A stretch of DNA of 63,209 nucleotides, filler included, from Collodictyon triciliatum (Eukaryota): assembly GCA_043381765.1 (NCBI GenBank). It is 5 parts of 5 records of this genome, joined end to end, with 100 filler letters (N's around TTAATTAATTAA, not from the genome) between each part and the next. Parts side by side here need not be neighbours in the genome. Positions count along the whole stretch, not along the records: positions 1 to 17,941 come from JBHJMP010001415.1; positions 18,042 to 35,957 come from JBHJMP010001417.1; positions 36,058 to 53,950 come from JBHJMP010001418.1; 2 more parts are not named here. One strand, written 5' to 3'. Position numbers and translations under genes: made by a program. Position 1 is the first letter of the stretch. Every line of letters starts with the position of its first letter. Shown here one piece after another: positions 6,085-51,300 of this stretch. The notes beneath the pieces were generated by a model. It had not been told where the DNA came from. It worked only from the letters and a program-made list of their open reading frames with translations, and did no database searches.

Positions 6085-9000
6085 ATGGACTCTGTTATTG
6101 TGGGGATTCGTGTCAAACCCTTGAATGATCGGGAATGGCCGTCCAATCGCATCGGTTCGTGGTTCATCGACACCCAATCTATCGCCCAGTGCGACAATCA
6201 AGGCACAATCATTCGAGCTGCTCGCTACAACATGGGTATTTCTTTTGTTCAGGCTTTTCTTCTTCTTCTTCTTCTTCTTCTTCTTCTTCTTCTTCTTCTT
6301 CTTCTTCTTCTTCTTCTTCTTCTTCTTCTTCTTCTTCTTCTTCTTCTTCTTCTACCAATACCCAGACTCTCAAATGCCGTCCTGTCCCTTTGTTCGGTGC
6401 GTTTTCAGGACTTTCTCTAAGCCACCAATTATTTTCTCTCTTGTTTCTGATTCCCTGTCTTTCTCAACAGACCGAGTCTTTTCGCACGAGGCAACAAATG
6501 AATACATCTACGCTCAATTTGCAAAGTCTATCATTGAGTCTGCCATGAATGGAATAAATGGTAATTTTTACTGACGAGCGAATAGAATATATATATATAA
6601 CCTATAAAATGCATTACCCAGCATTGTATTCACATTTTGTATGTTTCTCTTTAAAGCCTCTTGAATACCGAGAGGTTTCTTCGCCCTTCTGTACACAAGA
6701 AAAAGCAAAAACTGATACATCCCATAATTAGGGACGATATTTGCATATGGACAAACAAGTAGTGGGAAAACTCACACCATGCGCGGCGATCTGCGAACCA
6801 ACCCTGGTGTGATTCCGATGGCATTGCGCGATATTTTCTCAGTTGCCGAACACTCAGAGTCCCGACTCTATTTTCTCCGAGTCTCTTATATGGAAATATA
6901 TAATGAAGTTATTCGAGATCTGTTGAATCCTGACCCTACAAACCTAAAGATTCACGAGAGCGCTGAGGTCTTATTCATTCATACTTTTACTGTTTTTTTC
7001 TCCCCTCCTTTTACACCTGTGTAGATATTGTTTCCAAAAAAAAAGTTGTTTAAATCAGTATTTGATGAAAGAAAAAGCTATCCAAGTAATGATAGTACTG
7101 TCAAATCAGCGTCAAACTGAATTTTTTTATGTGAAACACAGAAAGGTGTCTTTGTAGGGGATCTACGAGAAGTTTCAGTACAGTCTATCGAAGAAGTTCT
7201 CAATCTACTTACTTCTGGAGAAGGTATACAAGCGAGACCTTCCCATTGCTGAACTATTTTACATCTACAAAGTCACTCACTCGTATATTTATGCATTTTT
7301 ATCTCTATACTTTGAGCAGCTAAACTCTTCTTTATCATCATTTTTTGTAATCATCAATATCAAATTTACACAATCGTATTCGTAATGTGCCTGTTATATT
7401 AATCATTCGAATGATAATTATTTTTTTTTTATAATTCATGGCTCAAAAGGAACATGCAATACTTTTTGGTTCACCTTGTTTTGCTTGAAATGACTGAACC
7501 TTTTACGAATTATTTTGAATGTATTACAAAATTAATTGGGTTCTTGTCCTATTTCCCTACAGCTCGACGTCATGTCGGGGCAACCAACATGAATGAGCAC
7601 AGTAGTCGCTCGCACACCATTTTTCAAGTATTCATCGAAAGTCGTGATACCACCGCTGGTGATGGAGATGAATCCGATGAATCCGTCCGTCTTTCGGTGT
7701 TGGTATGAACATTTTCTAATAATTACAATTATCTAAAAAAAAATAATATTTTTGATCCAAGTTGCGCAGAAGCATACCTCCTTTTAAAATTCTAATAACA
7801 TATGCGTCCTTTCATTATACACCTGTTTAACATATATCTAATCCTCTTAAGAATTTCACCCAAAAACATCATTAAAGTTCCAATCCATCTTATTTTTATA
7901 ACGACTTCCTTCTTCCTATGTACATGGCTTACACAAAAGAAGCCAAATACCTTGATGAAATTCATGCAACATGAATTCTTGGTTATGATAATGCGTTAAT
8001 TTTATTTTGAGAAACATGATTAACCAACAAATACAATCTCTTAACTTATAGAATTTAGTTGACTTGGCTGGTTCTGAAAGAGTCTCTTTGACTGGGGCTG
8101 AAGGAATTCGACTGAAAGAGGGCGTTCATATCAATAAAAGTTTATTGACACTCAGCACCGTGATTGCTAAACTTAGTGAGGGTTGTGTGTGAGTTACTGT
8201 ATAGCTATTTATTGCTATCATAATTGACCTTCTATGAATAAACTTACTGTTAACTTTGTGTTTCCTTCTTTCTTTGTGACTAAATAATTAACACTGAGGA
8301 AAACCCTTTATTTAATAGGGCACACATCCCATATCGAGAAAGCAAACTTACTCGTATCCTCCAACCATCTCTTGGAGGTAATGCCAGAACTGCAATTATT
8401 TGCACAGTAAACCCCTCACCTATGTTTACTGATGAAACGAACAGGTTTTTTTTTTATCATGAAAAGCACTGAGATTTACCTTTCATAAATTTATCATATG
8501 GAATCGCTATAAGCGCTGTATCATTTTGGTTACTTTCGTGGAGTTTTGGTTTCTTTACTTATAGTGAATTTATTCATAAAGTACGCTTAAGTTTGCCAGT
8601 CGTGCAAAAAAGATAAAGAATAAACCTAAAGTCAATGAGGTGGGCTTCATAGACCCATCGATAGCTGTTCTTTGGCAATTTTTTCCCTTTATTCGATTCA
8701 AAGTGTTCTTTGGCAATTTATTATAAAGTTATAATTCTCCTTTTCTTTTTGTCTTGAAAATACCTCATCGCCTTATCTCATTTGCTTACAATTTTCCCAA
8801 AATGTGACAAAGAGAGCAATTTCAGAAAACGAATTCACATACCACGTTCAAACTATCAGATGATGGATGAAAAGGCTCAACTTAGAAGCTATGAAAAACA
8901 AATCCGTGACCTGAAGAAACAGATGGAATCATCGACAAATACTGTAGCTTCACAGAAAGCACTGGAACAACTTCAGGAAGAAAAGCAAAAGGTTTTTTTT

Positions 9001-12000
9001 TTTGATTTTTTTGAAGTGCAAAATGCGTTTTGATTCTTAAAATCAAAGTATCTTTACAAGAAAACAAGACTAAAGGGATACTTTTTCGTCTGTAACGATG
9101 CCAATATTACAGTATTTTCATTTCCTTCACTCAAGTATGTTTTTTTTCATTCTCAGATTGAATTGGATAAAGAGGAAAAAGAGAGGAAGTTGAGAGATCT
9201 TGAGAGTCACGTCAGTCGATTGATGCACATGCTCACAACCAAGGCTGATTCAGAGAAAAAAACAAAGGTGGGGTTCATGGTACAATCATCAGATTTAATA
9301 CTCCGTTCTCATAACCTTTTCTGAAAACGATGATAGTTTTGTTCAATAATACTGATTTAACTGATATATACTAGTCCCGGCTCAGGCGAGAAACATGGGC
9401 GGCAGATTGTGGTTCTGGAAATGATATGGGTGAAATGGATATGTCGATTGATGTGGATTTCAAGAAGCCATTCCATGAATTCTTTGGTCCAACACGCTCC
9501 AGGAACAGCTCTGAAAACACTCCAACCCATCCTATCAAGAGTCATTCTCCATTCACTGCCCCCTATACTCAAGAGACCAAGTCAAGTTCACCCCGAGATG
9601 AAATATTATCATCACAAAAAATCGACGTTGATGGCGTTTTATACGTATGACACTTACATTTGTTTAATAGGGCAACTGTTTCTTCTGTTACCCATGAAAC
9701 TAACTCCCCAGTCAACTATTCTTTACCCCAAGGACTTTGATATGATTCGGGAATTGGTATCCGAAAACACACACCTCCGCGAGGAACTGTGCACTGCGCA
9801 ACAAGAGAAGCTCATTCTAATGGACCAGGTAATAATCATTTGAATAATTATTTATCTACTCGACGATTTTTTTTCACTACTCCCCTCATTTTCTCAGACA
9901 AGTTACCATACATTTGCTGCATTGCACATATTTCCCATATACGTTCCAATCGCCTGAATTAATTTGACCACAACCTAAATATCACCAGAACCTACGCAAA
10001 GAAACTATTCTTCTCATCCAAATATTATATTATATTTGTTTCTAGAAATTTACTCTGGAGAGAGAGGCGGAACAAATTCTGGATTTCACTGAAGAAAATG
10101 AAAAGCTAAAATCAGAACTCGATAAGGTATTTGTCGAGCTTGAAGAGTTGAAGCTTAAGGCTGAGCAGGTAATCCTTCATATAACAGACTTTGGATGCAC
10201 CGTTGATTTTACTCAATTGTTTTAATTCGATGAAATATGAATATTGAATTGATAAAGAGCCTTTATTTGATGAGCCCATTGATAATTATTCTTCATACAT
10301 GCATGAATTATTTTTATTTTATTAATTAGGAAGGATTGATTGCTTACGAAAAAGGGGAAATAGCAAAATCTCTTATTGTTGAACTTGAAGAGAAATCAGG
10401 CCAACTAGAGATTGCAGATAAATTGATTCATTTGTTACAACCGTATGATTTATTTATTCATTTATGTTACTTTCCATGCAAATTTCAACATAATATCCTA
10501 ATCTCACAAGAACATATTCCCATTTTAAAATAGCAATTATTTCTAACTATCAGGAGGCTCAGCGAAGCAGAAATGAGATGCGAGGAGCTCTACGAACTTG
10601 CAAATATGAAAGATACAATTATCAACGACCTTACTGCCAAGGTCGTTACTGCCAATGCAGAGACCCAAGAACTACGATTTCAAGTATATATCCCAATAAC
10701 CATAATTTGGATGAAATAATGTCGCTCAATTTTATTTTGAAACAAGTCTTGATAATCTTTCATGAACTCATCTCGCCCTTGTTATTTTTCTTATACCAAT
10801 TGAATGGAGTTCTCAAATTTGCCAATATTATTATTGATTCTGAGGGCACTGATTATCATATGCGCAACCATCAGGTGGAGTCTTCGATGGCAGTAGAACC
10901 TAAATCAAGCAGCATTCTTTTGGAAATAGGGGTTCAATATGACGCAGAGAAAGCCGTGAATGAGGTATAGCAGAAAGTCTAGTTTATTCGTCATTGGATA
11001 AAAAATTATTTTTCTTTTGTTTTTCTTATGTATTCAATACGACATTCGAATAATCAAATCGGTCAAAATTACCCCCATAGGTATCTTCCCAGACAGAATG
11101 TGCCGAAGTGCATGTGGATAATGAGGAAATTGTATCATTAAAAGGCATTTGTCAAGAATCAATTCGAACTATTGAAGCTTTGAATCGCGAAGTATCTGAA
11201 AGAGATATACAAGTATGTTCCACATATTCTTATTTTTGAAATCAAAAATTTCCTACTGACAGGATTTTAGGAGGGAATATTTTGAGTAAAATCTATCCAT
11301 CTCCTTAATCAAAATTAAACGTATACTTTTTCTTTTAAAAAAAAGTGTAAGACACTAACATTAAAATTTTAAATTAATGTAGATATCATCTATCAAGTCT
11401 GAATTTGATAGTTTTGTGAAAGATAAAGAACTTTGTCTCTCAGAATTAAACTCAGAATTGACTGGATCAAAAGGTATGGTAACGTGTTTATCTGAAAAAG
11501 TCCAAAGCCTTGAATCAAAACTAGCTGAAGCAGAGGGTCATCTGTCAGGTGATTGCAATTTTCTACTCTTTACCTACCTCGAGTTCGTGTTACATTTACG
11601 AATAAGGATATTTTGTGTCTAGTAGAATTTTCACAGTAAACATTATTATTATTATTTTTGCAAAATTGATAGAATTTATCTTCAAAATGAATAAAGAGAT
11701 ATAAAAATTCAAAAATATGATGCATCACTCATACTTTCCAACTTATATTTTATGAATTTTTGTTTAGCTGTATCTGTTTCCTTCGAGAAGGAGATATCAC
11801 ATAAGGACTCTGAGATAGTCGAACTTTTGCAATCTAACAAGGCCTTAGTATCTGAAATCGAGGGATTGAAATCTGGTCAATCACAATTATCTACCAAAGT
11901 ACGTATCAACACAATTATGGTCGACTTCAATATTTTCCAGCTTATAAAAATTATTACTTGATTAGTTCCTCGAGTTGGAATGCATATCAAATTCTCGCGA

Positions 12001-15000
12001 AAGGCTCATTAACGAGCTCTATGAGCAAAACGGGAAGCATCCTGTTGCAATTGCAAACAAAGAATACGAGATTCAGCAGCACAAAGACCTGATTCAAAGG
12101 TTGGAGAAGACCATTCATGAGCTTAATTCTCAAATTGAAGGACTTGAACTGGTATTTAGCCATCATTTGCAATCTTACAACCATATACATCATATCTGGA
12201 AGTGCTCACATAACCTCGCTGCACTTTGAATCGAATAAAGGGAAAAAAATATCTGGAAGTGCTCAAGAAAGCAATGATATGTTCAAATTAAACATTCTTA
12301 TCAACACATTCTTTTTTAAATCTACCAACCAGTGTCTGGATCAAAAGGGGGAAGAATGGGAAAGTCGATTTAATGAACAAAAGAAATTAGTCGAGGACAC
12401 CGAAAAGGCGTTGCAATACGAAAAAGAAGACTTGGAAAAGTGTCAGGAGGCGCTTAATGAAACACGAAAGACTCTTAAAGTACTTATTCATCGTCCAGTT
12501 TGTTTATCTTTTTTTTTTTTTTGATTTCTTCTCTTTTTCTCACCCAGAATTTTTGCCCAAAAATAAACTCTTTTTACGCAGTGTGGAAAATAAGTTACCC
12601 TTCTAACTTGCAATATTTAACTCAAATAATTCAGTCTCTCAATCCACAACAAGTGCAAAAGGATAAAGAAAACAACAGAAAAGAAATGGAAAAACTACAG
12701 AAAAAAATTGAAGAACTTGAAATCAAATTCAAACAGGTAATATATTTTTGTTTATTTTCATTATTCAATTCATTTGTTTGAGTTTAAGAATTACCAAAGA
12801 CAGTCTCTTACCTTACCTTACATGTCATATTGTCCAAAGGTTTCGCAAGAGAAACAAGCTTTAGCGGGAGAAAAAGTAACCAAAGAACAGGAATTCAAGA
12901 GTTTGGAGAAGAAACATAAAATGGTCGAGAGTCAGGTTACCTGTTCAATATACAAAAAATAATAATATCTAAACAATCGATAACTAATATATTTGATAGA
13001 AGAACTTATCCCCTGTAAGATTGTTGACATGAGCATTATTTGTAGTTAGAGAAACTGAAGGCTGCAGATACCAAGGCCAAAGACCAAACAAAAAAAATTG
13101 AAATACTCTCTAAAAAAACTGATGAGCTCAATCAACAAGTTGACAAACTCAGGGAAGACCTCGCAAAAAAGACACAGCAGTATGAAACAGTAAGAAAATA
13201 GCGATTTCTGTCATATTCAGTAAACTTCATCTAAATATGACTACATAAAAGTCTGGCATCATCAATCACAAGAATTAACATTCTGTTACATAAATTAGCT
13301 ATCATCAGACCATGACAACCTAAGAGGCTCTCTTTCAAGTTCTGAGCAAAAGGTTGTGGAGTTACAAACATCTCTAGCTGATAAAATTGAGAAATTGGAG
13401 GTTAGCATGAATGAATCCGCTGCAAAGACAGAGCAATTAAATGATTCCTCATCCAAGATAGAGCACCTTCAGACAGAACTTGAGAATATAAAATCTGTGT
13501 ACGAAAGAATAGCCCTCTCATTCCATGAATCCCAAAAGAGAAATGAAGAGCTATTGCTGGAAAATGCAAAGTTTAGGGAAAGTGAAATTGCATCAACTGC
13601 CCTTGTTGCCAGGTTGGAATCAGATATAAGTTCTTTAAAGTAAGTTCTTTTCTTGGTTTGGTTGATTGATCTTCCAACATATATGTGCGTTTAGCTTATT
13701 GAAAATATTTTTTGTCAAATGCTCGGCCGAATCATAAAGTTCCACAATTAATTGGCTTTCATACTTTCTGAGAAATAACCCTCTATTTTTCTCCTAAATC
13801 TAGAGCCGAGTCTTCCAGGGCTTTAGATAACTTGAAGGGCGAGTATGACAGATTGAACTCTGAAATCATGACTACTAGGAACGAGTTTGAGCAGCTTAGA
13901 GTTCAAAAAATGCAAGAAGAGGACGGATTCAAGAGCAAAATCACATCCTTGGAAGAGATTGTCAGCACAAAGTCTATGATTGCAAAATCAATGGAAAATG
14001 TGCGTGCATTAGTCCGATGTGGATGCTACCTGAATACATGCAAAATGAGACTAATTTTTTTGAATCTCGCTTTTTTTCTTATTCCAGATAATCTATATGT
14101 AATTAGTATCAGAATGAAAAAAAAATAGCTTATTATATGCCCTGTGTTTTCATCTTTTGATGATTTTGCGTATAGGAAATAATCGCTCTGAAAAGCCAAA
14201 ATGAGACTCATGAAGGTAACATCGACAAGCTCAAAAAGGATAACTCCTTGTTGTGTGAAAATATTACAAGTCTGGGGAATCAAATGAAGTCGACCGAGTA
14301 AGAATGGCACAATATGAACCCAAAGAAATGTTTTGCATTTCGCAACATATTCACTCAAATATTTTGAGAAATCATAATTGGGCATAGTTTTAATGCTTGT
14401 ATTACTATCTCAGAACTTTGTACAAAGAAAAGTTGGCGACTGCCGAACGAATAGCATGTGAAAGAAACGACGAGATCGAATACCTTAGAAAGCAATCGGA
14501 AGAGATAGAACGGTCTTCCAAGTTGAATGCAGCGCAACTGTTCAAGGAATTAGAGCAAGAGAGATGCTCAGTGCAGTCCTACATCGAGGTATGACAATTA
14601 TATAAGAATTTACATGCATATGTATGTACAATAGAGAAATTCATTTATTTATTTATTTTTGCATACCCCTATGATTAATGAAGGTGCATTATGTTCGTTA
14701 CAACAGAGATTCGCGGGGCTTAATGAAACGATCATGGTCATTCGCGAAGAGAATAGTGAATTGAAGAGAGCCAAAGAGTTGAATGAAGAGACCATAGCAT
14801 CATTGAAGATTGAGAAAACTGAAATGACAGAAACAACCCGCAGGTATACCCTCGAGAAAAGCGCATCGGAACAGACGATGGCTTCTCTCAGACAAGAAAT
14901 ATCCAGCATATCCGAAGAACTGAAGCGAATGGAAGGAACAAACAAAAAGCTTACCTCACAAATACAAAATTTGGATGGAGTTGTCCAGTCCTTGGAAAAG

Positions 15001-17071
15001 GAAATAGAAAAACTAAAGGCTCTAACACGGCAAATGGAGGCAAACACTGAAGCTAAAACTCGAGAGGTGTCTATTACACAAGAAAAGTATGAAAATATCA
15101 AGATTCAACTTGAAAATGCTCATGTGGAGTTGGAAAAGCTCCGAGAGAAAATCAAGTCTGATTATATTGTATCCTTATCTAAAGATGAACAAATCAAGGA
15201 ACTTGAAGAAATGGTACAGATTTACTCGAACAAAAGACTCAAAGGCCAAGCAAGAAGTCGAGGTCGCATACCATCTTCATTTTCTGAATCTTTTTCGAAC
15301 CCAGAAACTGTCCCTGATATCCCACATGAAAGCGACTCAGAGAGTGACTCTGGTAATCAACAAAAAAAGTACCAAGAACTGTTCTCACAATTTGAGCGAC
15401 AAACAAAAGAACTAAGTGAGAAAAATGAAAACATCCTCTCTCTTGAAAATGCTTCTAAACAACAAGCTACTGCAATTGTTGGCCTGAAAGATTTAAACAA
15501 CGGCCTTGAGGAAAAATTGGCTGTTAAAACAACTAAAATCACAAAACTTGAATGCGAGCTACAGTCTAGCAAGGACGTAATCAGTCAACTTCGCCAGGAA
15601 ATGGAGGAAAAAGAATCAGTGTTTGAAGAACAAGGTGAAATGATTGCGCAGCTTCTTGAAAGCAATACTAAGCTAAAAGAATCGATCGAAAGCTCAAATA
15701 CTGCTATGCACAATTCCCTTCGAGACTCAACTAAGCAAGAGCTTAAATCCAACTCTACACAAACGACGGAGCTACCAACCGATCACCTTGCTCTGCAATT
15801 GGAAACAAAGCAAGAGGAAGTTGCCCAACTCAAGAAACTAACAGAAGTGCAAAAGGTGAAAATCAAAGAGTTTGATAATCTGGTTGAGACCAAGCAGAGA
15901 GAAATCAATAGACTAGAATTACAACTGTCCTCGAAAACAAGGACTAATGAAGAACCAACCATGTAAGTACTATAGAGGCATATATACCCACATATAATTA
16001 CTCCTCTCATTTATCTTCTATGGCACGATTATTGAAATGGATAGATGTTACATATTGTTTTATTATGACTTTCTCTGTTAATCACTTGCTTTTTTTAAAA
16101 TAAAACAAAACGCATAGAATAAAGAAATCACCAATAAATCAGGAGGTAAGATGAGAATATTAGTCTATCTTCTATATTGTTTATGCTCCGAATAATTTTG
16201 ACGAATATATATATATATGAACGCATGTATCGTCTATATTTTCTTACTAAATAATTGCATACAATATGATCTAGAATGAAAACGGAGTCGCTGAAGTTGA
16301 TAGGCTTAAAAAGCGTGTGAAAGAGCTCGTTGAAGAAAATATGAATGGCAAGGTACATCTCCACCGCGACGCAAAGCTACCAAAGTCGTCATCATACAAG
16401 ATACTCAATCGATTATCTCTGCTTCTTTACTATTTTTCTTTTCAAAATGCTCCTTTGATAAATCCTGTAAATCCACGCAGAGAACAAAGAGAAACTTGAT
16501 CGTCGCCAAACGCGAAAATGCTTTGTTATCTAATACGCTGAGGGTTTGTGAGCAAGTGTTGGAATCACCCTTTTTGAAGCCCCAAGGCCAGTCAACAACT
16601 AGTTTGAGATCGAACTACAGCGCCAACCCCAGGATGGACTCGGCTGCCAATCGACAGCAGGTGACAATGCGATGATATATGTCCAATCAATATTTATTAT
16701 ACTTGGGGATGTATTGCGGTTGGGACTTGTTTGTTATTAATATTTTGCTCTCTTTTTCTCGGTTCGTAGCAACCGCCAGAAAGCCCCCCAAAGGCCAGCG
16801 TTCTGCAATCGAAGCGATTGTCCTTTTGCGTTTTTGTAAGATTCTTTCTTTTCTCATCTCCATATTTAAATTGCTCACTATTTGCAACACTGTCGTTTCT
16901 CAATTAATAGCTATAAATATTTCTTTCATATTTTTTGTTTACTTTTTTGTTGTGCGCTCGATATCAGTTTCGATTTTGTAGCAGCAAGGCATTCAATGGC
17001 ATATATCCCTCGTCATACATTACTTTTGTCATATTTATTTATTATTTTTGTCATCGTGGTTTATGCAATGA
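6085..17071 (+). CDS. Kinesin-7/CENP-E-like motor with a very long coiled-coil stalk, many exons; 3' end uncertain
   Basis: Motor motifs lie across exons: VGIRVKPLN (6085-), [21 protein letters not shown] (P-loop, ~6731-6780), [32 protein letters not shown] (switch I), [10 protein letters not shown] (switch II, ~8052), [55 protein letters not shown]. Many E/K/Q-rich coiled-coil exons follow to ~16660. The last exons (16770-16835 and ~16982-17071) are tentative. Confidence 0.92.
6257..6352. repeat. (TCT)n microsatellite in kinesin intron 1
   Basis: Perfect trinucleotide run. It explains the poly-L/F/S ORFs in the track. Confidence 0.95.
8666..8719 (-). mobile_element. Micro-insertion copy A (22 bp) with 16-bp TSD, in a kinesin intron
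   Basis: TGTTCTTTGGCAATTT (8666-8681) + TTTCCCTTTATTCGATTCAAAG (8682-8703) + TGTTCTTTGGCAATTT (8704-8719). Confidence 0.85.
12192..12265 (+). mobile_element. Micro-insertion copy B (40 bp) with 17-bp TSD, in a kinesin intron
   Basis: ATATCTGGAAGTGCTCA (12192-12208) + CATAACCTCGCTGCA-CTTTGAATCGAATAAAGGGAAAAAA (12209-12248) + ATATCTGGAAGTGCTCA (12249-12265). Confidence 0.85.
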
Positions 17072-17460
17072 TATTATATGATTAAATATTCAATAAACCT
17101 TCTCTCTCTTATTACGTGGAAAACTATGCGTTGAATAGGAGGACAAGTAGCATGAAATACACGACAGTGCCTTTTCACCCCGCCAGAAACCCTTCGTCCT
17201 GTGTTTAGGCAATTGACTTGCCCCAACCTTGCCGACGAGCCTCATATGTTCATACTTAACAGGCACACACTGTTAAAATAAAATAAATAAATAAAAAAAA
17301 GATAAAGAAAAGAAAGAAAAAAGAAAGGACTCGGCAATTCAAGAACACACCGCAATACCTGCCCTCTATTCCTGAGTTGGGAGTCAGTCTTCATTCCCAA
17401 GAGGTGGTTTCTGCAGAGTTTATCAGCCGATGGACATCTTATGTATGGATGGAAAATGTA

Positions 17461-17485
17461 AAGATACGAATCGAATAAAGGGAAA
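17461..17485 (+). mobile_element. Micro-insertion copy C (degenerate, no clear TSD)
   Basis: AAGATACGAATCGAATAAAGGGAAA shares the core, and also the AAGATAC 5' extension of copy G. Confidence 0.6.
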
Positions 17486-17941
17486 TCTACACAACGCGTA
17501 ACTCAACCGGCGCCGCGAGCCAAGATACCTGAGAGGGGAGTAATTTCCAGATCTGGACATATTCTGCGCTTCTCTATTTTTCGCTAAAAGGGGCTAATAT
17601 TAGCGTCCATGCGTCTCGATCGATGTTTTGCATCACCCTCCGGTGTGATTTGTTCCGATCAAAGCAGCGGATTGGCAGCGAGACATACGGGCGAAAGAAA
17701 CAGAACGAAGCGTAATTGAGCGGGGAAAGACACACGAGACTTTGGCCTCTAGAGAAAATTGATTCGTAGCTCTTTCTTTTATGTTAATGAGTATGTCTTT
17801 GATCTGTTTATCATTTCTTTTTTCTTTCTTCTTCTTTCTTTTCTTTTTTCTTTTTTCTTTTTCTTTTTCTTTTTCTTTTTCTTTTTCTTTTTCTTTTTCT
17901 TTTTCTTTTTCTTTCTTCTTTCTTCTTTCTTCTTCTTCTTT

Positions 17942-18041
17942 NNNNNNNNNNNNNNNNNNNNNNNNNNNNNNNNNNNNNNNNNNNNTTAATTAATTAANNN
18001 NNNNNNNNNNNNNNNNNNNNNNNNNNNNNNNNNNNNNNNNN
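17942..18041. other. Artificial assembly linker N44-TTAATTAATTAA-N44
   Basis: An identical 100-bp cassette recurs at 35958-36057, 53951-54050 and 61198-61297. The 12-mer places stops in all six frames. Confidence 0.95.
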
Positions 18042-18775: not shown

Positions 18776-20030
18776 TCACAAAGACTGTGTAGTGGCGGAG
18801 GCTGCCAGGAAAGACCCAACAGTCTGTTTTTTTAAAGCAAGGTGTATGCATATTTTGAGGATTAAAAGAACTTTCATGGGTATATTTTTAGCGCTGTTTA
18901 AGTCCTTTGCCAAGAATACACTTTGTTTGCTTTCTGACCGATTGCATTCTTTGCATATGAGACATCTATACATTTTTTTGAATTTCCTTTCAGTATTATA
19001 TATTCCAGTCCTTTTTTGCAGTTACAGCACATCTTGGAGGTTCTAAATTCATCTACACTAACTGGTTCAAAACTTTTGGACAGTATTATTCGTAATCCTC
19101 TTCCGATTGTTGCCATGAAATGCTTCATCGAAAATTTTCTGCTCCTGTCTCCATACCCCAGTACAACATCCTTGCCAAATGTCTTTTCGATTCCATCCAT
19201 AAACAACCGTTCACTTCTTTTTGTATTAACATACTGTCTCCATCTCATCTTTCGAAAAGTTATGTGTTCATAAAATCTGGATAATTCTATCTGGTATCAT
19301 GATTTCATAGATATATATTCTCGAAATTGTTCATAATCGATTGTGCGTGAATTATGTTTACTCAGTTCTGTATCTAAATCGATTAAAGATACTCTTGATA
19401 CCTCAAACTACTGATTCTCCTCAAAAGTCATGTGACCAAAAGAAATAGCACTTTGTAAACCTGTTGCCATGCATATCTCTGAAGCATTGTACTTTTCATT
19501 TCTTTTCTTTTTTTTTTTTCACACAAGAGTACTTTGTGATTTTTAAGAGATTTGCTATCATGTCTTGTTTGGTGTGCCGTGTAACGTGATTTCTTACCTG
19601 CCTCATCCACCATGTAAACCAAATAAACTTGCCTGCGTCCACTCCAACTATTTTTTGTCGCTAATAAAGATAACTGCTTTTCGAAAAGCTCATCTATATA
19701 AACATATTCTTGGGTTTTTTTGATTAAATAGGAATTTTGAATTTGAAATACCTTTCTTTTCAAATAATAATCACACCGCCAAGCTGTCTGTTTGTATCAT
19801 GTATATAAAAAATTGTAGTCTGTTTGATAAAAGACCCTCTTCTTCATTTCAAAGAAATTATCCCATAGTGTCCCTTTGCATCCTGATATATTCTTCATTA
19901 ATGATGATTTTCCATATAATACTGATAAATCTATCATACGTGCAGTATCTAGAGTAACATGACATGATGTAATGTCAGTTATTATAAAGGTTTCGCTGCA
20001 AAAAAGAATCATTTTCTTATTCATCGAGAT
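18776..20030 (-). pseudogene. Degenerate Fanzor (Fanzor1-like; eukaryotic TnpB-related RNA-guided RuvC nuclease)
   Basis: Joining frames on the minus strand gives ...HVTLDTARMIDL...LWDNFFEMKKRVF...YMIQTDSLAV*LLF...KIVGVDAGK (RuvC-I Asp 19637-19639) / LVYMVDEAGKKSRYTAHQTRHDS...DTELSKHNSRTIDYEQFREYISMKS*...FYEHITFRKMRWRQYVNTKRSE...FGKDVVLGYGD...VDEFRTSKMCCNC (RuvC-II Glu 19048-19050) / CLICKEC...KDLNSAKNI (RuvC-III Asp 18902-18904). Contains several frameshifts, two in-frame stops and an ~110-bp interruption near 19390-19495. Confidence 0.85.
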
Positions 20031-20361
20031 ATCTTTTTTAATTGCTCCTCTCAACTCTGCCACCCCAGCGCGATGACCACGTTCATTCACATTTCGTGGT
20101 GTGGAATGGATAAACCTAGGAAATTACCACCGTCCTGACCCACAAACAAACCCTGCAATGTCTTTGTTCATTCAATCTAAAGATGATAGTATTCTGTCTT
20201 ATTTTGTCCAAGAGCGGAGGCTTCGTCCAGGTGATTTCGTGCTGCGCAAGTCTGGAGAGAAGCGTTGTGTTTGTGGGGTATTCCACAGATGTTTTATTTT
20301 TATTTCGAAAGAGACCCCCTTCAGCAAATATTGGAGCGCAGAACCAGTCATGACAAAAGTA

Positions 20362-20525: not shown

Positions 20526-23500
20526 AAATAAAAAATAAAAAATAAAAAAAAGACTTGTCAACTCAATGGAACAATAATTGGATGTCGATGCGACCGGATA
20601 GTATACTTCATTCTCTCTCTTTTAAATGCGTAAGAATAATAGTATTATGGCCTGTGTGTCTAGCTAGGGCTCTTTAAGCAATAAGAAACACACCTTGAAC
20701 TGGTACTGCTTCTTGGCAAACTTGATTGTAAACCCAAACATCTCATCCCCAGTCTCCCATTCACTCCCCTGTTGAGGCACAACAGATCAGTTAAGAGGGC
20801 GGGAAAGGTAACATGCATAAATATGACAGTAGATTACATGTGCGGTTGCAAGGGAGAAAAAGGGTGCGTGGACACGATACCTGAAAGTCGCCCTCGATGG
20901 GGATTGTACCGCTGGAAACACGCATAGTACCGTCCAGATAGCGGATAAGGACACGGGCATCCTTGTCGAGGACAAAGAAGCGGCGCTCCCAGGACTTGTA
21001 GAATGCGGTGTGCCTGTACATCATGATGCCGGTCATTGCGCGCTGGTTCGGCTGGGAGGTGGGCAAGACGGGGACCAGGGCTGGGGAGGAGAGGAAGATG
21101 GAGGACTCGTCTGTCATGGCAAAGCACTGGGGGCAGAGCAGACGCACGGTGCCATCCTGGAAGCGCTTGGGCTGCAGATGGTTGCGCCATTGCCCGGTGG
21201 GGTCGAGCGCATCCACCACCCGAGCAAACTCCTGCGTGCGGTGGTGGCGATGGACGGCGCCGTGGCTGCCCTTCTTGCCAAACCACTGGACCATCTCGGC
21301 CGCCTCGATGCCTTGGCTGTCAGCCGTGAGCGCAGAGACGTTGGCCTGCGGCTTCCACAGTTTCAGGAAGTAGTGCAGGATCTTGCGGTTGGCCAGGATC
21401 TGCTGCGCCGTCACGTGGAGCGACAGCCCGTCCACCCGGTGCGGCTCCCCAAGCGACTCGCAATGCATCTGGAACAGCAGTGCGTTTGCCGAAAACACGG
21501 GCGCCGTTGCCAGCGACGACGACAGCGACAGCGGCGAAGGCATCGACGGCGACGGCGACGCCGCTGCCATGTGCGAGGCGGACAGTGAGGCCGATAGCAC
21601 GCTCCTCACTGGCCGGGGAGACGACGAGGCTGCTGCTGCTGCTGAGCCCAGGGTCGGGAGTGCCTTCGTGGGTGTGGAGAACGGCGATGCGGCCGACACT
21701 GAGCTTCTGGGCGAGGCCATCGGCGATGCGCTGGACGACGGCACGGCTGTCCTCCCTGCGGCCTCCTCCGAGCACGGCTCGATGGAAAGAAGGTCGGGCA
21801 CAAACAAGGCGTCTGCCGCCAAAGTATGCCTCGATGTGGAGATGACCTTGCCTTCCGTCCACTCCTCCAGTGTGTATCGCTCTTGCTCCTTCAGGCACGT
21901 GACCCGCCCTTCCTCGTCCACGTCCACGTTGTCCATGGCGATGCGTCCGCAGCACTCGAACGCCGGCTGCCGCTGCGAGCAGAATGGGCAGAGAATCGCC
22001 TTGCTTTCGATGGTGTAGCCGTCATATCGCTCCAGCTTCTTTGTGATGATGTCGAGTAGGTGCTTCATGCAGTCCAAGGCCGGGTACTTTTCGTTCAGGA
22101 CCCGCACAGAGACAAACACCTTGCGCTCGTCCTTGTGGTGGTGAAGCATGTATCGGTACGTCGGCTGCATCTGCGCTTTTTTCAAAGCACATATGGTGGA
22201 AACGACGTAGTTTGTGCTGTAAAACTCCCTTGTCTCAGCATCCTGGCCTCCTTTGAATCGTTGTGGCCCCATCGATCCGATGAGAGTCTGGAATGCAAAC
22301 CTGGGAAGCATGTTGAAGCGTAGTTCGCAATTGATAAAGGCCGGTACAGCCGCTGAAGGGTTCCACGACCACAAGTCTGGGTGGGGTGCCGCCTCATTCA
22401 GCAGGTAAGGGATGATTTCAAAGTTACCGTCGCTGCTGGGGAATGAGAGGTTGTAGAAGCGCATGATGTCAAACACCTCATCGGCCAGTCCAGGGAAGTT
22501 CTCGTCAAGGACGCCGCGGAAGTGCTCTGTGACATAGACTCCACTCACCCCGCGAATGTGGGGCGTCTTAAAAATAATGCGAAATATGCGAATTAGGAGC
22601 GCAGGGTGGCAGATAACCTTCTCTATAAATTCAGGCTTGCTAATCCAGACTACAGAGCCGATATCTCGGAGAATGGTAAGCGTGGTGTGTGCATGGAGGT
22701 CGCTCTTGAACATCGTCATGTAGCTTTCAAAATCCTTGAAAGACATTGTCGAGTTGGATTTCGTGCGAACCACTCCGTCCACAACCTGTATCATCCGGAA
22801 AAAGGACTCGGGATACTCAATATTGAGAGACGGTAGTTGAGAGACAACTTGGACGATCTTCTCTCGGACTAGAGGAATGTTATTCCCGTTTGCATTACTC
22901 ACGGTGATAAAGTCTACAAACTTGATGATGCTGCGCAGCGGGGCCAAGAGTTGCTTGATTGATTCTAATAAAGAGTCTCGGTCCTGCTCGCTCCACGAAA
23001 GACATTGATCGTTGTGGGTCCCCACAACTATCACACGGGCTCCTGGAGCTGCTGTGGCAATCACATCTGCCCATCTTTTCAAGGAGGAATGGTCGGAACG
23101 ATTCGACATGTTCCACACCAAGATGATGACCGCGCCAGTCGATATAAACAACTGTCCGAGACACTCGAACTTAGCAGACCCGCTAAAATCCCACATGGTC
23201 AAGGAGACACTTGACTGGCCCATCTTGACCACGAAAGGGTCTGGGTGGATGTCAATGTCCAGCGTGGTGGGCATCTGTGATGAGCAAGGCGATACAAAAA
23301 CTGACGACTTTGACAAAATCGACTTCATCAGTGTTGTCTTCCCTGAGCTGGGTTCTCCAACCAGAAGAACGCGACTCAGATTCAGGCCTCTTGTATTAAG
23401 TAAACCTTTCCTCAGATGCTCCATTATGTGTGATATTCCGTGCTCTGCTACAGATTTGAGAACAGGTTCTAAGGGGAGCTCTTGAATATCAAGAACTTCC

Positions 23501-28472: not shown

Positions 28473-28528
28473 ATAATTTCCACACTAGAATGAATCGAAT
28501 AAAGGAAAAAATAATTTCCAGACTAGAA
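28473..28528 (+). mobile_element. Micro-insertion copy E (20 bp) with 18-bp TSD (1 mismatch)
   Basis: ATAATTTCCACACTAGAA (28473-28490) + TGAATCGAATAAAGGAAAAA (28491-28510) + ATAATTTCCAGACTAGAA (28511-28528). Confidence 0.85.
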
Positions 28529-28805: not shown

Positions 28806-29455
28806 TCATACTTTTCTCGGTCGTTATCCTTCGCTTCTCACACAGCGCATTTTGTTGGCTGGCTCTTTTGTGATGTTGTGCTTTTGTTATGCGGGGGCTG
28901 TGTGACTAGGAAACTATGCCTGGGCTGAAGATCCCTTCGTTGTTATAGTTGTCCCTCTATTTCCCTTGTCATATGGTATCTAATTCTTTTTTATTTTTAT
29001 TTTGTTTGTGTTTTTTTTTTTTTCGCCTCCTGGTGTTTACATTTCGTGGCTAAGTGCTGAGCTGATCGTTGAGCATAGATCATTGATCATCACCGCAAGC
29101 AGCCAAACCCGAAGCCGATGGAACCCACGAAGGAGGCCAATGCACAAAAAGAAACGGGCACTTTCATCAGTAATGTACACTACGAACTCATGCCTCTGTG
29201 TTATTCCAGCATGCAATAGATTTACGTGATACGCTCTTTCGCACACTTAAGAACCATGTTTTTCTATTTGGAGTAAAATAAAAATATAAAAAAAAAATAT
29301 TGGTTCCTTCCGAAGGGTCATATATGAGTAAAACAAAACAAAACTAAACTAAACTAAACAAAACAAAACAAAACAAAACAAAGACAAAGACAAAGACAGA
29401 CCGTTCAATGGAAATATGATTTTGCTCCAAATTGTACTCCACCTCTTGTATTCAT

Positions 29456-32400: not shown

Positions 32401-35316
32401 GTCAAAAGAATTCTGAGACCTGGAGGTATTTTCATAGTTCGAGAACATAATGCGGAAAAAGGCCCCCAGAGTGAGGTAATGTTTTCTATGCATCTAATAT
32501 CGTTCCTTCTAATTCTCTCAAAGTGTAGTCGAATGTGGTACTGAATGATCAATAATAGTTGCATAGAATAGTGTAATGGCTTGTATATGATAAATCCTTT
32601 TCTTTCTTTCTTTTTTTTTTTTTAGCCAGGAGCGAACTCAAACGTATTGGACCTCATCCCCATGCTAGACTTGGCTCATAGCGTGTTCAACGCGGTCACT
32701 GGGGTCCCCATTCAACTTGAAAAAACAGAAATTCGAGCCTTTCGCTCAATACTTGAATGGAGGGATATTCTGCAAGGGCATGGATTTATCGACACTATGC
32801 TCTACGAAATACAAGCAAGTGACCCAACACTAGACGAAATGATGTGTTTCTACAAGCCCCCCTTCACTGACCGTCTGTTTGTTCACCAAGAAAAATATTC
32901 AAGTATCCTCCCGGAAGAAAATGGGGTGGACATTACCAAATTTGCTGTTCCTTCTATCTTGAACGATATTATATCCCCTATACCTGGAGCTGTCCTCCAC
33001 TTGGCCAAGCAAATATTGAAGATGATAATCGATTATATCCCAATTTTTTCAAAATATCTTTTTGATTATGTCAAATATATTTTTCCTCCGTCTGTTCATG
33101 ACCTTATGGCTGAAAATATTCGTAATACATCCTCTGAAGTTACATCATGGTTTCAGCGGTTAGGGCCTTTCCTGAATGAATCCAAGGTAGTCGGATGCAC
33201 TTCTCCTTCTCTTTTTCCATCTGAATTTCTCTTAGTTTACCCAGCGATTAAACGTAAGGCCAGTCTGGGAAAGGCCACAGCAGCAGAAACCGTGCTGATT
33301 TCATTCATCGAAGACATAAAAAAATCTCTCACATCGGAGCCAATCAGCCAAGCTTTCAAATGTGCCTCACCCGGGAATTCACAAACAATCGACACTGAAA
33401 AAGTATTACAAAAGATAACTTCCTTAGTGGATGCACTTCCAGGACTCAAGGGACCAAATGTTTTTGAAGAGCTCAATATACCTACAATAATCAGGAAAAT
33501 GTGGAAATCTGCACATGCAGCTGCCGTATCAGCCGATGCAGTGTACCAAAACTCTGAAAACACAGGATCCCCTGGGAGCCAAAATCATTTAATTTATGTC
33601 ACAAGGGCGTTGGTTGCCTATCTAGACATTTTTACTTGGAAGGAGCTTTCAAAAGTCCTGGATGTTATCATCAAAGAGAAGGCGTTTCCTCCTCCTTTGG
33701 AGGCAATTATCGAGAAAGCGTCGTGTTCTAGTAATGAGATATATGATAACAGTCCAGGCGGATTATGGGCTCGGGCATTAATATCCTTGTTAGGCTCAGA
33801 GCAAATACAATTAGGCCAATATTCCGGTCAAGCAAGATTTGTTGGCTTAGGGAAACTATATGACCTTTGGAAATTTTCTCAAGAGCGCAGGAAACGCGCC
33901 GTAAAATTGATTTCAGAATCTCAGAAGCACATGGATGAAGAGGCTCTCCAGTACGTTACAAGGATGGATACTGTCGAGGTAGTTATGAACGAACACGCCT
34001 TTCATGATATACATAATGTTCGAGGTATTAAATCTGCGACGTTTGGATATACAAGCCTGACTGTCAGTCCAGTTTGTGTCTTGAGCTTAGTAAGTAAATA
34101 CCTAAAAGATGGTACTTTGCATACATCACAAATCGCAACTCAAACTTTGGAAGAACATCGGAAAACTGTCGCTGTTGTCGAGGGTGTTCGTCGGTTTGTG
34201 GTATCAAAGACCAGCAAATTAAATATACAATATTTTCCCTTGACTGAAACAGACGAAAAATACCAAAAACATGCATCCGCTATTATTAAATATCTAACTG
34301 AGACCGGACAGCTGAATCAAAATCGAAAAGGACAAGGTCATTATAACTATTACAAATTACCCGAATGGATGCAGGTATGTGTGACCTCAAAGGCATTGAT
34401 TTACATTATTATTAATTTTTTTTTCCTTTATTCGATTCAAAGTACATTATTATTAAAAAAAAATTTTTTTAAAAAAAACAACTTAACTGGTTAATGTCAC
34501 TGAGTGTATGTCGCTTTTCTTTTCTTTTCTTCTTTTTTTGAAAACAAAACAAAACACCGACTAAATATTTTCTCCCACCAGGTTGAGATAATTCAAATAT
34601 TCGGAGAAAGCTTGGAGCACACACCATGGTACCGATTTCCCTTTTTCGATTTCATTAAAGTTTACTTCAAAGTTCTTTCTCAGATGGTAGGAACAGTGAG
34701 ATCAGAATATGGAGTTGGAAAAGCGGTTTTCAGTATGGCATTTGCTACTGACTTGATTCCTGGAATTGTAATGTCTATCCTTTTCGCTCAGATGAAGTTA
34801 TTATCAAGTCCTATAGCGTACTCATTAGGAAATGAATACCCTGAGGATGAAATGACGGAGCATATAGTAATTGCAGTTCATCAGTCCGAGCAAAATGATT
34901 TGAAAAAAATAGGCGGGAAAATCAGATCATTGAGGGAAGTTGCTCGTGGCCGAGGAATATACATCATGGAGGTGGACACGTTCAAGAATCTAACAACTGT
35001 TCTGAAGAGTATGGCCATTGCTGTTCCAAACGCCAGAATATTGGAAATCTCGAACCATCAGAAGATTCATATCAAAGTGGTTCTCCCACGCTCCGCCGAT
35101 ACGGAAGAGAAGGAGCAGAAACTTGTTGAGAGAATCAAACAATACCCGGGGTGTGCTCTCGTTTTATCGTTCCGTTACCCTGTCGACGGAACACCAGCCC
35201 AGAAGTCGCCCCTTTGCCTTTCCCTCACCGTGCAAGTACCTTGTCTGCTTCATTTTGTCAAGGAGTGTCACAGTTCTGGCGTTGGTGTTGCGCAGATATA
35301 TGACTTTTTCTGCTGA
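29456..35316 (+). CDS. FAD-linked oxidase (PCMH/VAO fold, aldonolactone-oxidase-like) fused to a class I SAM-dependent methyltransferase-like domain and a long C-terminal region (~1600 aa); start uncertain
   Basis: Exons ~29456-30097, 30542-31722, ~31968-32475, 32626-34374 and 34582-35316. FAD motifs: SIRGTQHSMGGHS, SFSVGGTVSVNAHG, AIGGFGLFGVITD; oxidase cap ILQEYFVP...GGTFYLPY...KERYDPDCLF. MTase-like: YVSIGDNG...SVDFVTINQGLHHL...LGEVKRILRPGGIFIVREHN. Confidence 0.88.
31770..31885. repeat. (TATG)n microsatellite in an intron (also at ~18042-18085)
   Basis: Directly visible. Confidence 0.95.
34402..34456 (-). mobile_element. Micro-insertion copy F (27 bp) with 14-bp TSD, intronic
   Basis: TACATTATTATTAA (34402-34415) + TTTTTTTTTCCTTTATTCGATTCAAAG (34416-34442) + TACATTATTATTAA (34443-34456). 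Confidence 0.85.
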
Positions 35317-36225
35317 GCGACATACCCACGAATCAGCGGCTGTGTTGGAACTGTGTAACATCGGCGCTCGTAATCGCACAGCATGCGTAGTGATAGTTTC
35401 TACGGCCCCAACTTTGCCATATCTCTTAACTCAACCCCACCTGCTCCTCTTCTCGTGGTTAAAACATTCCTTGTGCTTCGCGCTCAAACCCAAAGTATCT
35501 TTCTTTTTTTTTCACTCGTTCTTTCCTCCTACAAGAAAATGAGAAGAAAGAGAAAGAAAGAATAGCCCTGGAACGTGTAAATTGCCACAATATTCTTTGT
35601 AGAAAGAGAAGATACAAGTGTATGTTGTCATCACATAGTTTGCACATCCTTTGCGAGTTTCAACACAGAAGCAAGCAAGTCACAGATTGCTATCCTTTTT
35701 TTTTTTTTTTGCGTGCGAATCTATCTTAAGAAATAAATAAAGAGAAGCATGACCGTTTTGGTGGATAGCTGGCCTCTTCTTTGTTCGAGGCAAGAAGGCA
35801 GCACCACTTACTCAGCCACTTTATCTTGCAAAAGAAAGCAGCCAAAGAGACCTGCCACGACCGAAGTGCAGCCGGCTGGCGTGGCGATGGAAATACCAAC
35901 CCAGGCTGAGGCACAGCCAACAGCCCAGCCAAAAAATGAAGATGGCAAAGTTCGCATNNNNNNNNNNNNNNNNNNNNNNNNNNNNNNNNNNNNNNNNNNN
36001 NTTAATTAATTAANNNNNNNNNNNNNNNNNNNNNNNNNNNNNNNNNNNNNNNNNNNNAACAAAAAAAAAAACAACAAAAAAACAACAAAAAAACAACAAA
36101 AAAACAACAAAAAAACAACAAAAAACAACAAAAAAACAACAAAAAAACAATAAAAAAACAATAAATAAAAAAAGGAAGCTGACTAGTTAAAATATGTAAG
36201 TTTATCTCACAAAAAGGATCGAACA

Positions 36226-39608: not shown

Positions 39609-47938
<8,330 letters not shown>

Positions 47939-48356
47939 GTGATGGGGACTGTAGTATTCTGCTTCGAGAGGAAACTTCTCCTTACGGTTAAATAAGGCTC
48001 CCAGAGAAGAAAAAATAGAATAGTAATAAATGCCAACACCTTGGTTGCTACGATGTGTAATTAGTCCCCAACAGAGGTAAAATGATACAGTCATTTGGTA
48101 TCATAACGTATCTTGAGTGCCCTTTGTTTAGATTGTCTGTTTATATAAATCTCAGCGTGTGTGTGTGTGATACTTGTGTCCAGTTTTCTTCATTTCTGTA
48201 AGTGCGTGAGGCGGGGTTTTGTTGGGTGAGAGGAAACTTGCTTGTGGAAATTATAGGGGTAATCGGGCAACCACTGAGCGACCAGAAGACTCTTCAAATC
48301 ACCAAAAAGAAAAGAAAGAAAAGAAAAAGACTTTGACGGCGAGTGCCTCTTCCAGA

Positions 48357-51300
48357 TCACTGAAGGAACGGCTGGATGCGGGTCTGGACCTCGGGAGAGA
48401 GAGTTCCCCATGCCTACAATAATGCATGCAAGTAAGAATGTGGCCATTCTGAATTGGTTGTTGTAGTTGTTATTAATCCAGGGGGTGAAGAGAGTGCGCG
48501 AAAGGCTACCATACACACGAGGTTGTTTGAATAAAGAGTATAAGGCATTGGTGGCAGAACTCAGGCTGGGGAGAGCAAGAGACAAGAATACCTGTTGGAT
48601 TTGCAGGATGACAGGTTGAGGAATGCCAGAGACTGAACCACTCATGACCTGCGGTTTATGAGCCATGGGTGTTATAATCAGAGGCATCGGGAAACGAATG
48701 AATAAATCTCAGGAAAAGATACTTTGAATCGAATAAAGGAAGAATAAATCTCAGGTATAGATACATATATATAAGAAAAAAATTGAGCTGCGGATAGGTG
48801 TGCTCAGATTAAACACGCCAAGATAAAAGGGAATTACAAGAAAGCGCCTAAAATTAGTCTCTGGAGAAAAAGAAAAATGCGTTTGGTCTATACCTGCTTG
48901 ATGATAGTAGCGATGCGGATGTTCAGTGCGTCTGTCGATTCTTCTACACCCAAGAAGGTGGCAAGAGCTCCAATGATGCGAGGAAGGTTGGAAAATCCAG
49001 CACCAAGGGCTTCAACTACGTTGCTGTAATTAAAGTCGTAGACTTTTCAATCGCCCGTGATGATGGAATAACAAGGTAAGTATATTCAAATGATAAATTC
49101 ATACCCCTCAACAAAGTCGCATATTGTGGAGTAGATATTAACACCTTCATCGAGGTCGGCCTTAATGGGGAGGTAGCCAACAACAAGTGGAATCAGGGCT
49201 CTGTAATGTATAAACAGATAATTATGCCAACGATTAAATAGATGTTCTAGTTCTTCTGGGTTTGACAAGTTAAACCAAAAAAAAAAATGAGTAGAATTGT
49301 TTCGAGTAATTTGGAGAAAAGAAAATGGTATATGCCATTGTTATATGAGCCCATCAATACTAACCCGAAGTTCACACTCTCGCGGTGATATTTGCAAATC
49401 TTGCACAGTGTAGAGATGCAGTTGTCTGTTGGGCGCTCATTGTCCTCATCACGAGAGTTTGGTGCCTGGATGAGACGAAAAGAAAGCGAAAGAAAAAGAA
49501 AAAATAAGAGGGAAGGAGTCGTATGAGTATGATTTAAAATTGAAGAATCTTTACACATCTTCGCTAGAAGATCAAGACTTACGCTGATGAGCGTCACAAG
49601 CTGCTGGGATGCCTGGTTGGCAAAGGATGCAAAAACTGGCCCACATTTCTCAGCTGCAACACCGACTCCGTAGACAGCAGCCTGGCGAATAGAAGGGTCG
49701 GCATCGATGCTACAAATTACAAATAAAATAGAAACTATGTTCATCGAAGCTAATTGCTTTTCTGTTGCTAACTATGATATTCTGGCGATGTAATAGACAA
49801 TTAATCAATCATGTATTAATGCCGATACTAAAATCTACTTCTATTTTCTACTTATAGATATATAGATATATATCCACTACTTGGAATCAAATTTCGAGTA
49901 GATTGCTCTTTTAATAATAAATAATCTGCATACCTTGATTGGACGAGGACTGGCACGATTTGGGGTGCGTAGTGGGCAGCAAACTGTCCACCAAACTCAA
50001 CAACATCATCAAAGACCCACAGACTGAGGAGGCGGTCAGTGGAAGGATGGTCAGGAGCCTAGGGCAAACAATATAATGAATTTCACATAATGCAGAATGT
50101 CCAAAAAAAAAAAAACATTCCTTTCAATTATACAAGAAAACATGTTTCGGTGATGTGTGAAGCGGGTCTTTTAGTCGGACATTTTATCAAAAGAAGCTTC
50201 ATATTCACAAGGAGATTGGTTAAGTGTGAATGTAAGTGGAATTAGTAGCCTACAGCAAGCTGCATGAAGCTGGTCAGGTAATTGCCGAAGAGAGGCATAA
50301 ATACGTCTGTGTGCGTTTTGATGAGGGCACCAAAGACTTCAGAAACCTGGTAGAATAAGTAAAGAAAGCCTTTTTCACTTTGATGTGAATTATGTGCTAG
50401 TAGAGTTTGAAATGCATTGAATCGATTAGCGGTTTCACACTAAAGAATGTCGAGTATATATTTACCAAGTTCATGACCATTTCATCGCGCTCTTTTTCTC
50501 CTTCAATGATTTCCTCCTCTTCAGCATCAAAATCTTCATCCTGACGACTTTCCTCTGTAAAAGAACATGTTTCAAAACCAAAGAATTCGAAGCTGAAACG
50601 ATGATTTGAAAATCATTGGCCATAGACTTCAATAGCAACGTACGTCTCTCTTTGTGTCTTTCTTGGCTGTCTTTAATGACGGCAGCGTGACATGCTCCAA
50701 TTTGGTTAACAAGCTCAACCGGGATGGAATTGGGCACAATCATCATGATGCACTAAGGAGATAGTGAGTGGATAAACCGAATGCCCTCTGGGTTGTGTTC
50801 AGTGAAAAGCATAATAATAATAATATACATCTCTAAGGGACTCAAGCATGCTTTCTAACACTTCGATGGCAGGCTCATTTTGGATGGCTTCAATCAATGG
50901 GCCAAAGACTGCAGCCTGCAACTGATGGAGAACCTCAATTCCAGCCACTAATTGAAGGAAAAATAAGAATATGAGATATGGAAATAGGATTTTTTTTATT
51001 TCCTTCGCTTGTGGTTGGTGGCGTGGAGTTGCAACTTATTAATTGAGAGCATAGTACTCGATAGTTCAAGTCATGATATATGCTTAATCACTTTGTTTTT
51101 CAACAGCAGCTTTGCAAACACCAAGAAGACTGGGCATTGCCATTGTAGAAGCAGTACGGACGTCTAGTATGGTGTATTTGAACCGGTGAGAAGGGGTTTC
51201 CCGCTATTAATTGATTCTGGAGCACTATAATTCATCAATACCATCGCTCAGTTTCATAGAAAATAATCACCTTCGTTGTAGTAGAATTTAAGGAGTGGGA

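Follow-up and report, generated by a model that had tools for sequence, protein, structure and literature searches.

Ultra-short inserts in Collodictyon triciliatum DNA as probable, extremely 5'-truncated copies of a young L1-like retrotransposon

A 63,209-nucleotide stretch of DNA from Collodictyon triciliatum (GenBank assembly GCA_043381765.1), made up of parts of five records joined end to end and referred to here as the window, carries a family of very short inserts in which a common motif is followed by a run of A. We consider it probable that these inserts are extremely 5'-truncated copies of one young, L1-like, poly(A)-tailed non-LTR (lacking long terminal repeats) retrotransposon family. 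The copies lie between target-site duplications (TSDs), they have a common 3' end and varying 5' ends, and the same tail is found in a metagenome contig behind the C-terminus of the second open reading frame (ORF2) of a long interspersed nuclear element (LINE). The designation L1-like (APE endonuclease, reverse transcriptase (RT) and CCHC zinc knuckle) is suggested by the domains of distant relatives rather than by an RT phylogeny.

The 14-mer GAATCGAATAAAGG is present in seven exact copies when both strands of the window are searched (positions 8686, 27258 and 34425 on the minus strand and 12228, 17468, 28492 and 48726 on the plus strand; copies are numbered 1 to 7 in order of position). Shuffled windows contained a mean of 0.03 copies and none of 100 reached seven. 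A preliminary description of the same DNA, based on inspection of the sequence, had reported seven copies at these sites, and all seven hold the exact 14-mer, but an eighth, diverged copy at 57899-57950 was overlooked. The longer core proposed there is complete, starting with CTTTG, in four copies and starts with TTTG in one, but copy 5 (28492) starts with TGAATCG and copy 3 (17468) with GAATCG. A scan of the window allowing up to three mismatches found no copy of the 14-mer with a single mismatch, indicating that the young copies are identical in their core. Differences among the seven copies amount to 0 over 98 core positions, and those within the six TSD pairs to 2 over 96 positions, which suggests that the insertions are young.

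Read in the orientation of the element, each of the seven cores is followed by G or GG and then by an A-run of 2-9 nt (6, 7, 3, 9, 6, 9 and 2 nt in copies 1 to 7). The A-run lies on the sense strand of the insert in all copies and in the metagenome contig (L008), as is characteristic of L1-like insertion. Measured against the tail of L008, the LINE-derived part is 18-21, 33, 14, 18, 15, 18-19 and 17-19 nt long in copies 1 to 7, where a range for a single copy reflects 0-3 nt of microhomology at the junction. The 3' end is shared and the 5' ends differ (14-33 nt in the young copies, at least 52 nt in copy 8, over 1000 nt in L008), which is the pattern of 5' truncation. Each insert brings with it an AATAAA hexamer and an A-run. 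With 7-8 copies in 63 kb, apparently located in introns and spacers, the window has approximately one copy every 8-9 kb.

Site-specific direct repeats of 14-19 bp bracket six of the seven copies, with copy 3 as the exception. These TSDs vary in length and are unique to each site, and our measurements returned the lengths given in the preliminary description (16, 17, 17, 18, 14 and 14 bp, two of them with one mismatch). As a control, the whole window was scanned for exact direct repeats of at least 12 nt within 450 nt, and for repeats of at least 13 nt with one or two mismatches within 139 nt (16 matches in total). Microsatellites aside, the repeats that flank the motif at these six sites exceed all other close direct repeats in length, and neither of these window-wide scans revealed a second family of short inserts between TSDs. 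At five of the six sites the TSD opens with A or GAA, and at five of the six T-rich DNA precedes it. This fits priming on poly(A) by a T-ended nick, with the caveat that six sites are too few for a consensus and that the boundary between A-run and TSD is ambiguous.

Longer sequences carrying the same tail were found in public data. Contigs of four sequencing runs (X1, X2 and X3 among them) were aligned to positions 1-17941 of the window; these contigs have a small share (0.06-0.12 of the sampled words) and show presence only, and none was seen to span an insertion site empty of its insert. The runs are labelled as freshwater and wetland metagenomes and one coded organism, with shares too small to indicate a habitat. 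Contig depth over this region peaks at the insert of copy 2 (12209-12252). At least 13 X1 contigs (10 + 3) and eight X3 contigs extend upstream of 12209 or 12214 with sequence unlike the flank in the window, and their upstream consensus (agreement 0.56-0.64) ends in ...CCCTTTGTATGG, as in L008. A 24-mer scan of metagenome contigs returned no matches because L008 differs by one base there. The exact 18-mer was found at 35 loci in the metagenome contigs, only one of which (L008) continues with poly(A). The other 34 were rejected as copies of the element, as they are chance matches in unrelated, mostly coding DNA with no A-run. The LINE tail had no matches in prokaryote genome contigs or in viral contigs.

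The L008 contig (1157 nt) reads ...CCCCTTTGTATGGCATAACCTCGCTACA followed by the 18-mer and ten A. Upstream of the 18-mer it has the same 15 extra nucleotides as copy 2, save one base, and when the whole 40-nt insert of copy 2 (12209-12248) is compared with the L008 3' end, 39 of 41 positions agree. This bears out the first source that had been proposed for the inserts, namely the extreme 3' tip of a LINE or a short interspersed nuclear element (SINE). Upstream, the contig contains an open frame of 202 codons which runs off its end, has a C-x2-C-x7-H-x4-C knuckle and matches the Pfam family zf-RVT (PF13966; E 1.5e-7, 32.4 bits, cut-off 27.5). Beyond a single frameshift the frame resumes, ending ~85 nt upstream of the poly(A). 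The 3' untranslated region (UTR) of L008 ends in two tandem units of ~25 nt, the last of which is the counterpart of the micro-copies. These units have diverged in the young family, and copy 8 shows the ~25-nt unit as a 13-nt exact repeat, GCACTTTGAATGG, at 57896 and 57921.

Longer relatives of the L008 ORF were not found by a word-indexed search, and a HMMER search with the same ORF against 1.84 billion representatives identified 14 relatives. One of these (P0001) is 98% identical, and its cluster mate P0015 (359 amino acids) shows an intact frame. Four of the 14 are full length (1226-1275 amino acids, 29-38% identity); all four contain Exo_endo_phos and RVT_1 domains, and three of the four contain zf-RVT at scores below the curated cut-off. 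Of the solved relatives of P0009, human LINE-1 ORF2p ranks best (E 3e-57, compared with 9e-24 for R2), and P0015 aligns to the C-terminal positions 975-1196 of P0009 (E 3e-18). Given the tail behind the ORF2 C-terminus in L008 and the domains of its relatives, the motif is, judging from these sequence comparisons, the terminal 18 nt of an L1-like LINE's 3' UTR. The A-runs, the TSDs and the position of the tail behind a zf-RVT-containing ORF2 C-terminus agree with the earlier attribution of the inserts to target-primed reverse transcription (TPRT) by a non-LTR enzyme.

We infer that the parent element encodes both endonuclease and RT domains, and that copies arise in the following order. The endonuclease of the element would nick AT-rich non-coding DNA at a step from T-rich sequence to A, and the freed 3' end would prime on the poly(A) of the LINE RNA. 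Reverse transcription would then be aborted once no more than the terminal 14-33 nt had been copied, with exactly 18 the most frequent length. The second strand would be cut 14-19 bp away and the short complementary DNA (cDNA) joined with 0-3 nt of microhomology, leaving the tail and a short A-run between TSDs. The early stop could come from a poorly processive enzyme or from host interference, and is possibly sharpened by selection against long inserts in gene-dense DNA.

Several observations weigh against truncation during TPRT as a sufficient account of the family. Copy 3 is without a TSD, and the TSD of copy 6 starts with TT, which primes poorly on poly(A). The parent comes from one 1157-nt metagenome contig of unproven host with a frameshifted ORF. 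The preliminary description had recommended a search for long LINE copies that end in the motif, and this was answered in part: L008 supplies the C-terminus of ORF2 but holds no RT or endonuclease domain. The L1-like architecture derives from distant relatives (25-31% identity), the evidence comes from one window, and no long copy of the element lies within its 63 kb. The AATAAA hexamer is unlikely to be a working poly(A) signal because it stands only 2-3 nt before the A-run.

The lengths of the inserts are a further difficulty for this reading. All seven young copies contain at most 33 nt of LINE sequence, and simple random truncation does not predict that none of the eight copies exceeds ~100 nt. 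Moreover, four of the seven young copies are compatible with a single 5' end, at the C positioned 18 nt upstream of the A-run. In simulations with uniform truncation between 14 and 33-50 nt and random microhomology, at least four of seven copies shared one 5' end in 0.2-1.1% of trials (P 0.002-0.011), a post hoc test on seven copies. The loose ends of X2 and X1 contigs show an extra micro-copy from another locus, with its start at -19/-18 and GAGGCGC(C/T)ATT repeats on either side. An RNA hairpin was considered as the cause of the recurrent 5' end and was rejected because the tail folds no better than shuffled sequences (z -0.36 for a 98-nt stretch; 0 kcal/mol for the 25-nt unit; -2.3 kcal/mol and z +0.35 for a 40-nt unit).

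The shortness of the copies could alternatively reflect an ordinary truncation spectrum followed by selection, such that only ultra-short copies survive in short introns and spacers. The window is gene-dense with introns of 67-303 nt, longer tail-bearing copies are present in X1, X3 and L008, and in stickleback the available portion of one report describes selection against long copies of LINEs, together with a surplus of very short ones (PMC3381678). However, selection on length cannot create a common 5' end at one nucleotide, and spacers should tolerate copies of 50-200 nt, yet no young copy exceeds 33 nt. We consider this explanation rather unlikely.

The recurrent 5' end is instead what would be expected if the inserts were run-off cDNAs of a discrete short template, an RNA in which the terminal 18-19 nt of the LINE are followed by poly(A). 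Such an RNA might be a 3' fragment of the LINE mRNA, produced by endonucleolytic or small-RNA-guided cleavage (by a host slicer or nuclease, for instance) and with the ORF2 protein still holding its poly(A), or it might be a minimal tail-only retroposon mobilised in trans. Besides the agreement of four of the seven young copies at -18 and the start of the extra micro-copy at -19/-18, it speaks for a short template that the TSD scans returned no TSD-flanked copies with less than 14 nt of tail, and that the micro-copy equals the last unit of the 25-nt tandem repeat in the tail. However, a single 3' end is common to copies of 14, 15, 33 and at least 52 nt, so truncation of varying extent is certain. 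RNA structure does not mark the -18 site, the agreement comes from a post hoc test on seven copies, and an RNA of this size has not been observed. The preliminary description had offered a discrete ~20-nt RNA or an RNA-templated patch of DNA breaks as further sources; neither is needed, and the recurrent 5' end keeps a short template as a quite unlikely alternative of low probability. If it were correct, the genome would carry thousands of 'fossil cleavage products', the inserts would represent the shortest retroposon unit known, and the template may have seeded the 25-nt tandem unit of the LINE's own tail.

Pairs of LINEs and SINEs that share their 3' tails are well established, and a SINE or another RNA mobilised in trans would use the same enzyme and yield the same TSDs and A-tail. 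The copies could accordingly be pictured as truncated SINEs derived from a non-autonomous element that shares the tail of the LINE, and the 33-nt and 52-nt copies do stop short of the LINE coding part. We regard this as very improbable. ARAGORN identified no tRNA genes and Rfam gave no matches in the window, leaving no RNA polymerase III promoter head of the kind that defines a SINE; the X1 and X3 sequence upstream of the tail agrees with the L008 3' UTR; and a SINE body was not seen anywhere. The inserts themselves, at 19-40 nt with LINE tail only and no promoter-bearing head, are far below the size of any SINE. Lastly, an assembly, adapter or linker artefact, for which the only ground would be a short and identical sequence and which the preliminary description had named as grounds for abandoning its interpretation, can be practically discounted, given TSDs that are specific to each site (two with a mismatch), a tail that recurs in four independent runs and behind the LINE ORF in an independent metagenome contig, and its absence from prokaryote genome contigs and viral contigs.

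Under the preferred reading of extreme 5' truncation during TPRT, the inserts resemble L1 insertions in their poly(A) end, in their variable TSDs of 14-19 bp and, as far as six sites suggest, in a T-rich to A-rich target. The parent ORF2 likewise has a C-terminal CCHC knuckle (zf-RVT), and its distant full-length relatives have APE and RT domains with human ORF2p as the best match. Truncated L1 insertions in mammals are typically several hundred nucleotides long, whereas the LINE-derived part here is 14-33 nt in all seven young copies; in addition, one 5' end recurs here and the A-runs are very short (2-9 nt). The common 3' end, variable 5' ends and 0-3 nt of 5'-junction microhomology are again shared with L1, for which 5' truncation, 5'-junction microhomology and abortive retrotransposition are described in the accessible part of one report (PMC2912911).

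Severely truncated LINE copies, even copies that consist of poly(A) only, are already in print, as far as the accessible parts of two reports extend (PMC3219598, PMC3381678). These parts describe a poly(T)-only insertion in the human NF1 gene, read as a severely truncated element (PMC3219598), and the Maui L2 element of stickleback, in which about a third of copies are shorter than 100 bp (PMC3381678). Both resemble the inserts described here in being extreme truncation products of the same process. They differ in that, in those parts, they are single cases or the tail of a broad length distribution, whereas in the window every young copy is such a stub, with a preferred end point. The exact 14-mer GAATCGAATAAAGG was not mentioned in the literature searched, which was covered in part. 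Within the same partial coverage, excluding supplementary tables, we found no description of a LINE in which all young copies have at most 33 nt and a preferred end. The family appears to be an undescribed L1-like LINE with a stubby insertion spectrum, in which an ordinary mechanism has an unusual quantitative outcome, as seen in a single window.

The individual copies have the following structure. Copy 1 (8666-8722, minus strand) has an insert at 8685-8703 (CTTTGAATCGAATAAAGGG) with 18-21 nt of LINE sequence and a 3-nt microhomology (ACA) at the 5' junction. Its A-run merges into the TSD, and the TSDs (8704-8722 and 8666-8684) match over 16 nt exactly or over 19 nt with one mismatch. Copy 2 (12192-12265, plus strand) is the longest young copy, with an insert at 12209-12248 that contains 33 nt of LINE tail, an extra G and the A-run between exact 17-nt TSDs (12192-12208 and 12249-12265). 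It lies in sense orientation in an intron of a kinesin-like gene (12151-12331, GT..AG), which is absent from a spliced X1 contig. The preliminary description had placed all copies in introns or intergenic DNA; copy 2 is directly supported as intronic by this contig, and the others appear to be non-coding from the ORFs that flank them.

Copy 3 (17468-17485, plus strand) consists of 14 nt of LINE tail, G and AAA, and no TSD was found for it in the window with up to three mismatches allowed. The 7-mer AAGATAC occurs on either side of it, at 17461 and 17522. In copies 3 and 7 alike (17461-17528 and 48714-48722), the hexamer AGATAC stands directly 5' of the LINE tail and recurs downstream of the insert; that of copy 7 probably belongs to a 23-nt TSD. 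Copy 4 (27234-27292, minus strand) has an insert at 27251-27275 with 18 nt of LINE tail and seven A (a run of nine A when the first As of the TSD are counted), and TSDs of 17 nt with one mismatch (27276-27292 and 27234-27250). Copy 5 (28473-28528, plus strand) has an insert at 28491-28510 with 15 nt of LINE tail and five A, and TSDs of 18 nt with one mismatch (28473-28490 and 28511-28528).

The insert of copy 6 (34402-34456, minus strand) occupies 34416-34442 and consists of 18-19 nt of LINE tail and nine A, flanked by exact 14-nt TSDs (34443-34456 and 34402-34415). That of copy 7 (48700-48764, plus strand) occupies 48723-48741 and consists of 17-19 nt of LINE tail and AA, with exact 14-nt TSDs (48700-48713 and 48742-48755) that can be extended to 23 nt with two mismatches. 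Copy 8 (57899-57950, plus strand) was detected by blastn of L008 against the window; it has at least 52 nt of LINE tail, with 81% identity to L008 over 52 nt, two mismatches in the core and an A-run of eight. No TSD was recognised at this site. By this sequence comparison, copy 8 is older, more diverged and longer than the seven young copies. The part of L008 upstream of the tail had no blastn match anywhere in the window.

Other features of the window include a 132-amino-acid ORF (18898-19296, minus strand) that contains ...DEFRTSKMCCNCK... and has neighbouring ORFs at 19428-20123 (minus strand). It gave a weak, sub-threshold match to the Pfam family Cas12f1-like_TNB (E 0.034, 14.7 bits, cut-off 26.3), and may be a remnant of a TnpB/Fanzor-like transposon protein, near the TSD-less copy 3 along the window. 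Blocks of 44 N, 12 bases and 44 N are present at 17942-18041, 35958-36057, 53951-54050 and 61198-61297, the first three ~18.0 kb apart, and resemble the product of masking or scaffolding more than a biological feature. Runs of N of greater length are found at 58257-58884 and 61308-61406.

Two long open frames, at 20791-23541 (minus strand) and 61400-62430 (plus strand), have a much higher G+C content than the 34-41% of the rest of the window (~0.49 over 20-24 kb, and a very GC-rich translation at 61-62 kb). One of the two encodes a Roc/Ras GTPase-domain protein and the other, judged by eye only, resembles an adenylate kinase. Several long ORFs follow one another over 29420-34494 (plus strand). 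One of these resembles D-arabinono-1,4-lactone oxidase C-terminal domains, with nearest Atlas clusters that are mostly bacterial, and the 622-amino-acid ORF at 32626-34494 had no Pfam match. An NHL-repeat ORF of the window had one weak match in a homology search. Microsatellites are very frequent between and within genes across the whole window, for example (AAAAC)n at 57.7 kb and (CTTTTT)n at 17.8 kb, together with trinucleotide runs at 28.6 and 39.9 kb and, at 59.2-59.4 kb, a (AAAAAACAG)n-like run.

Ordinary repeat annotation does not extend down to inserts of 20-40 bp. If the density in the window holds genome-wide, the scars of this LINE would far outnumber those in any repeat table, and the element would also supply small intron insertions and presence/absence markers. 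With its stubby spectrum and preferred stop, this family would offer a natural case for studying what ends TPRT, be it processivity, host restriction or template cleavage.

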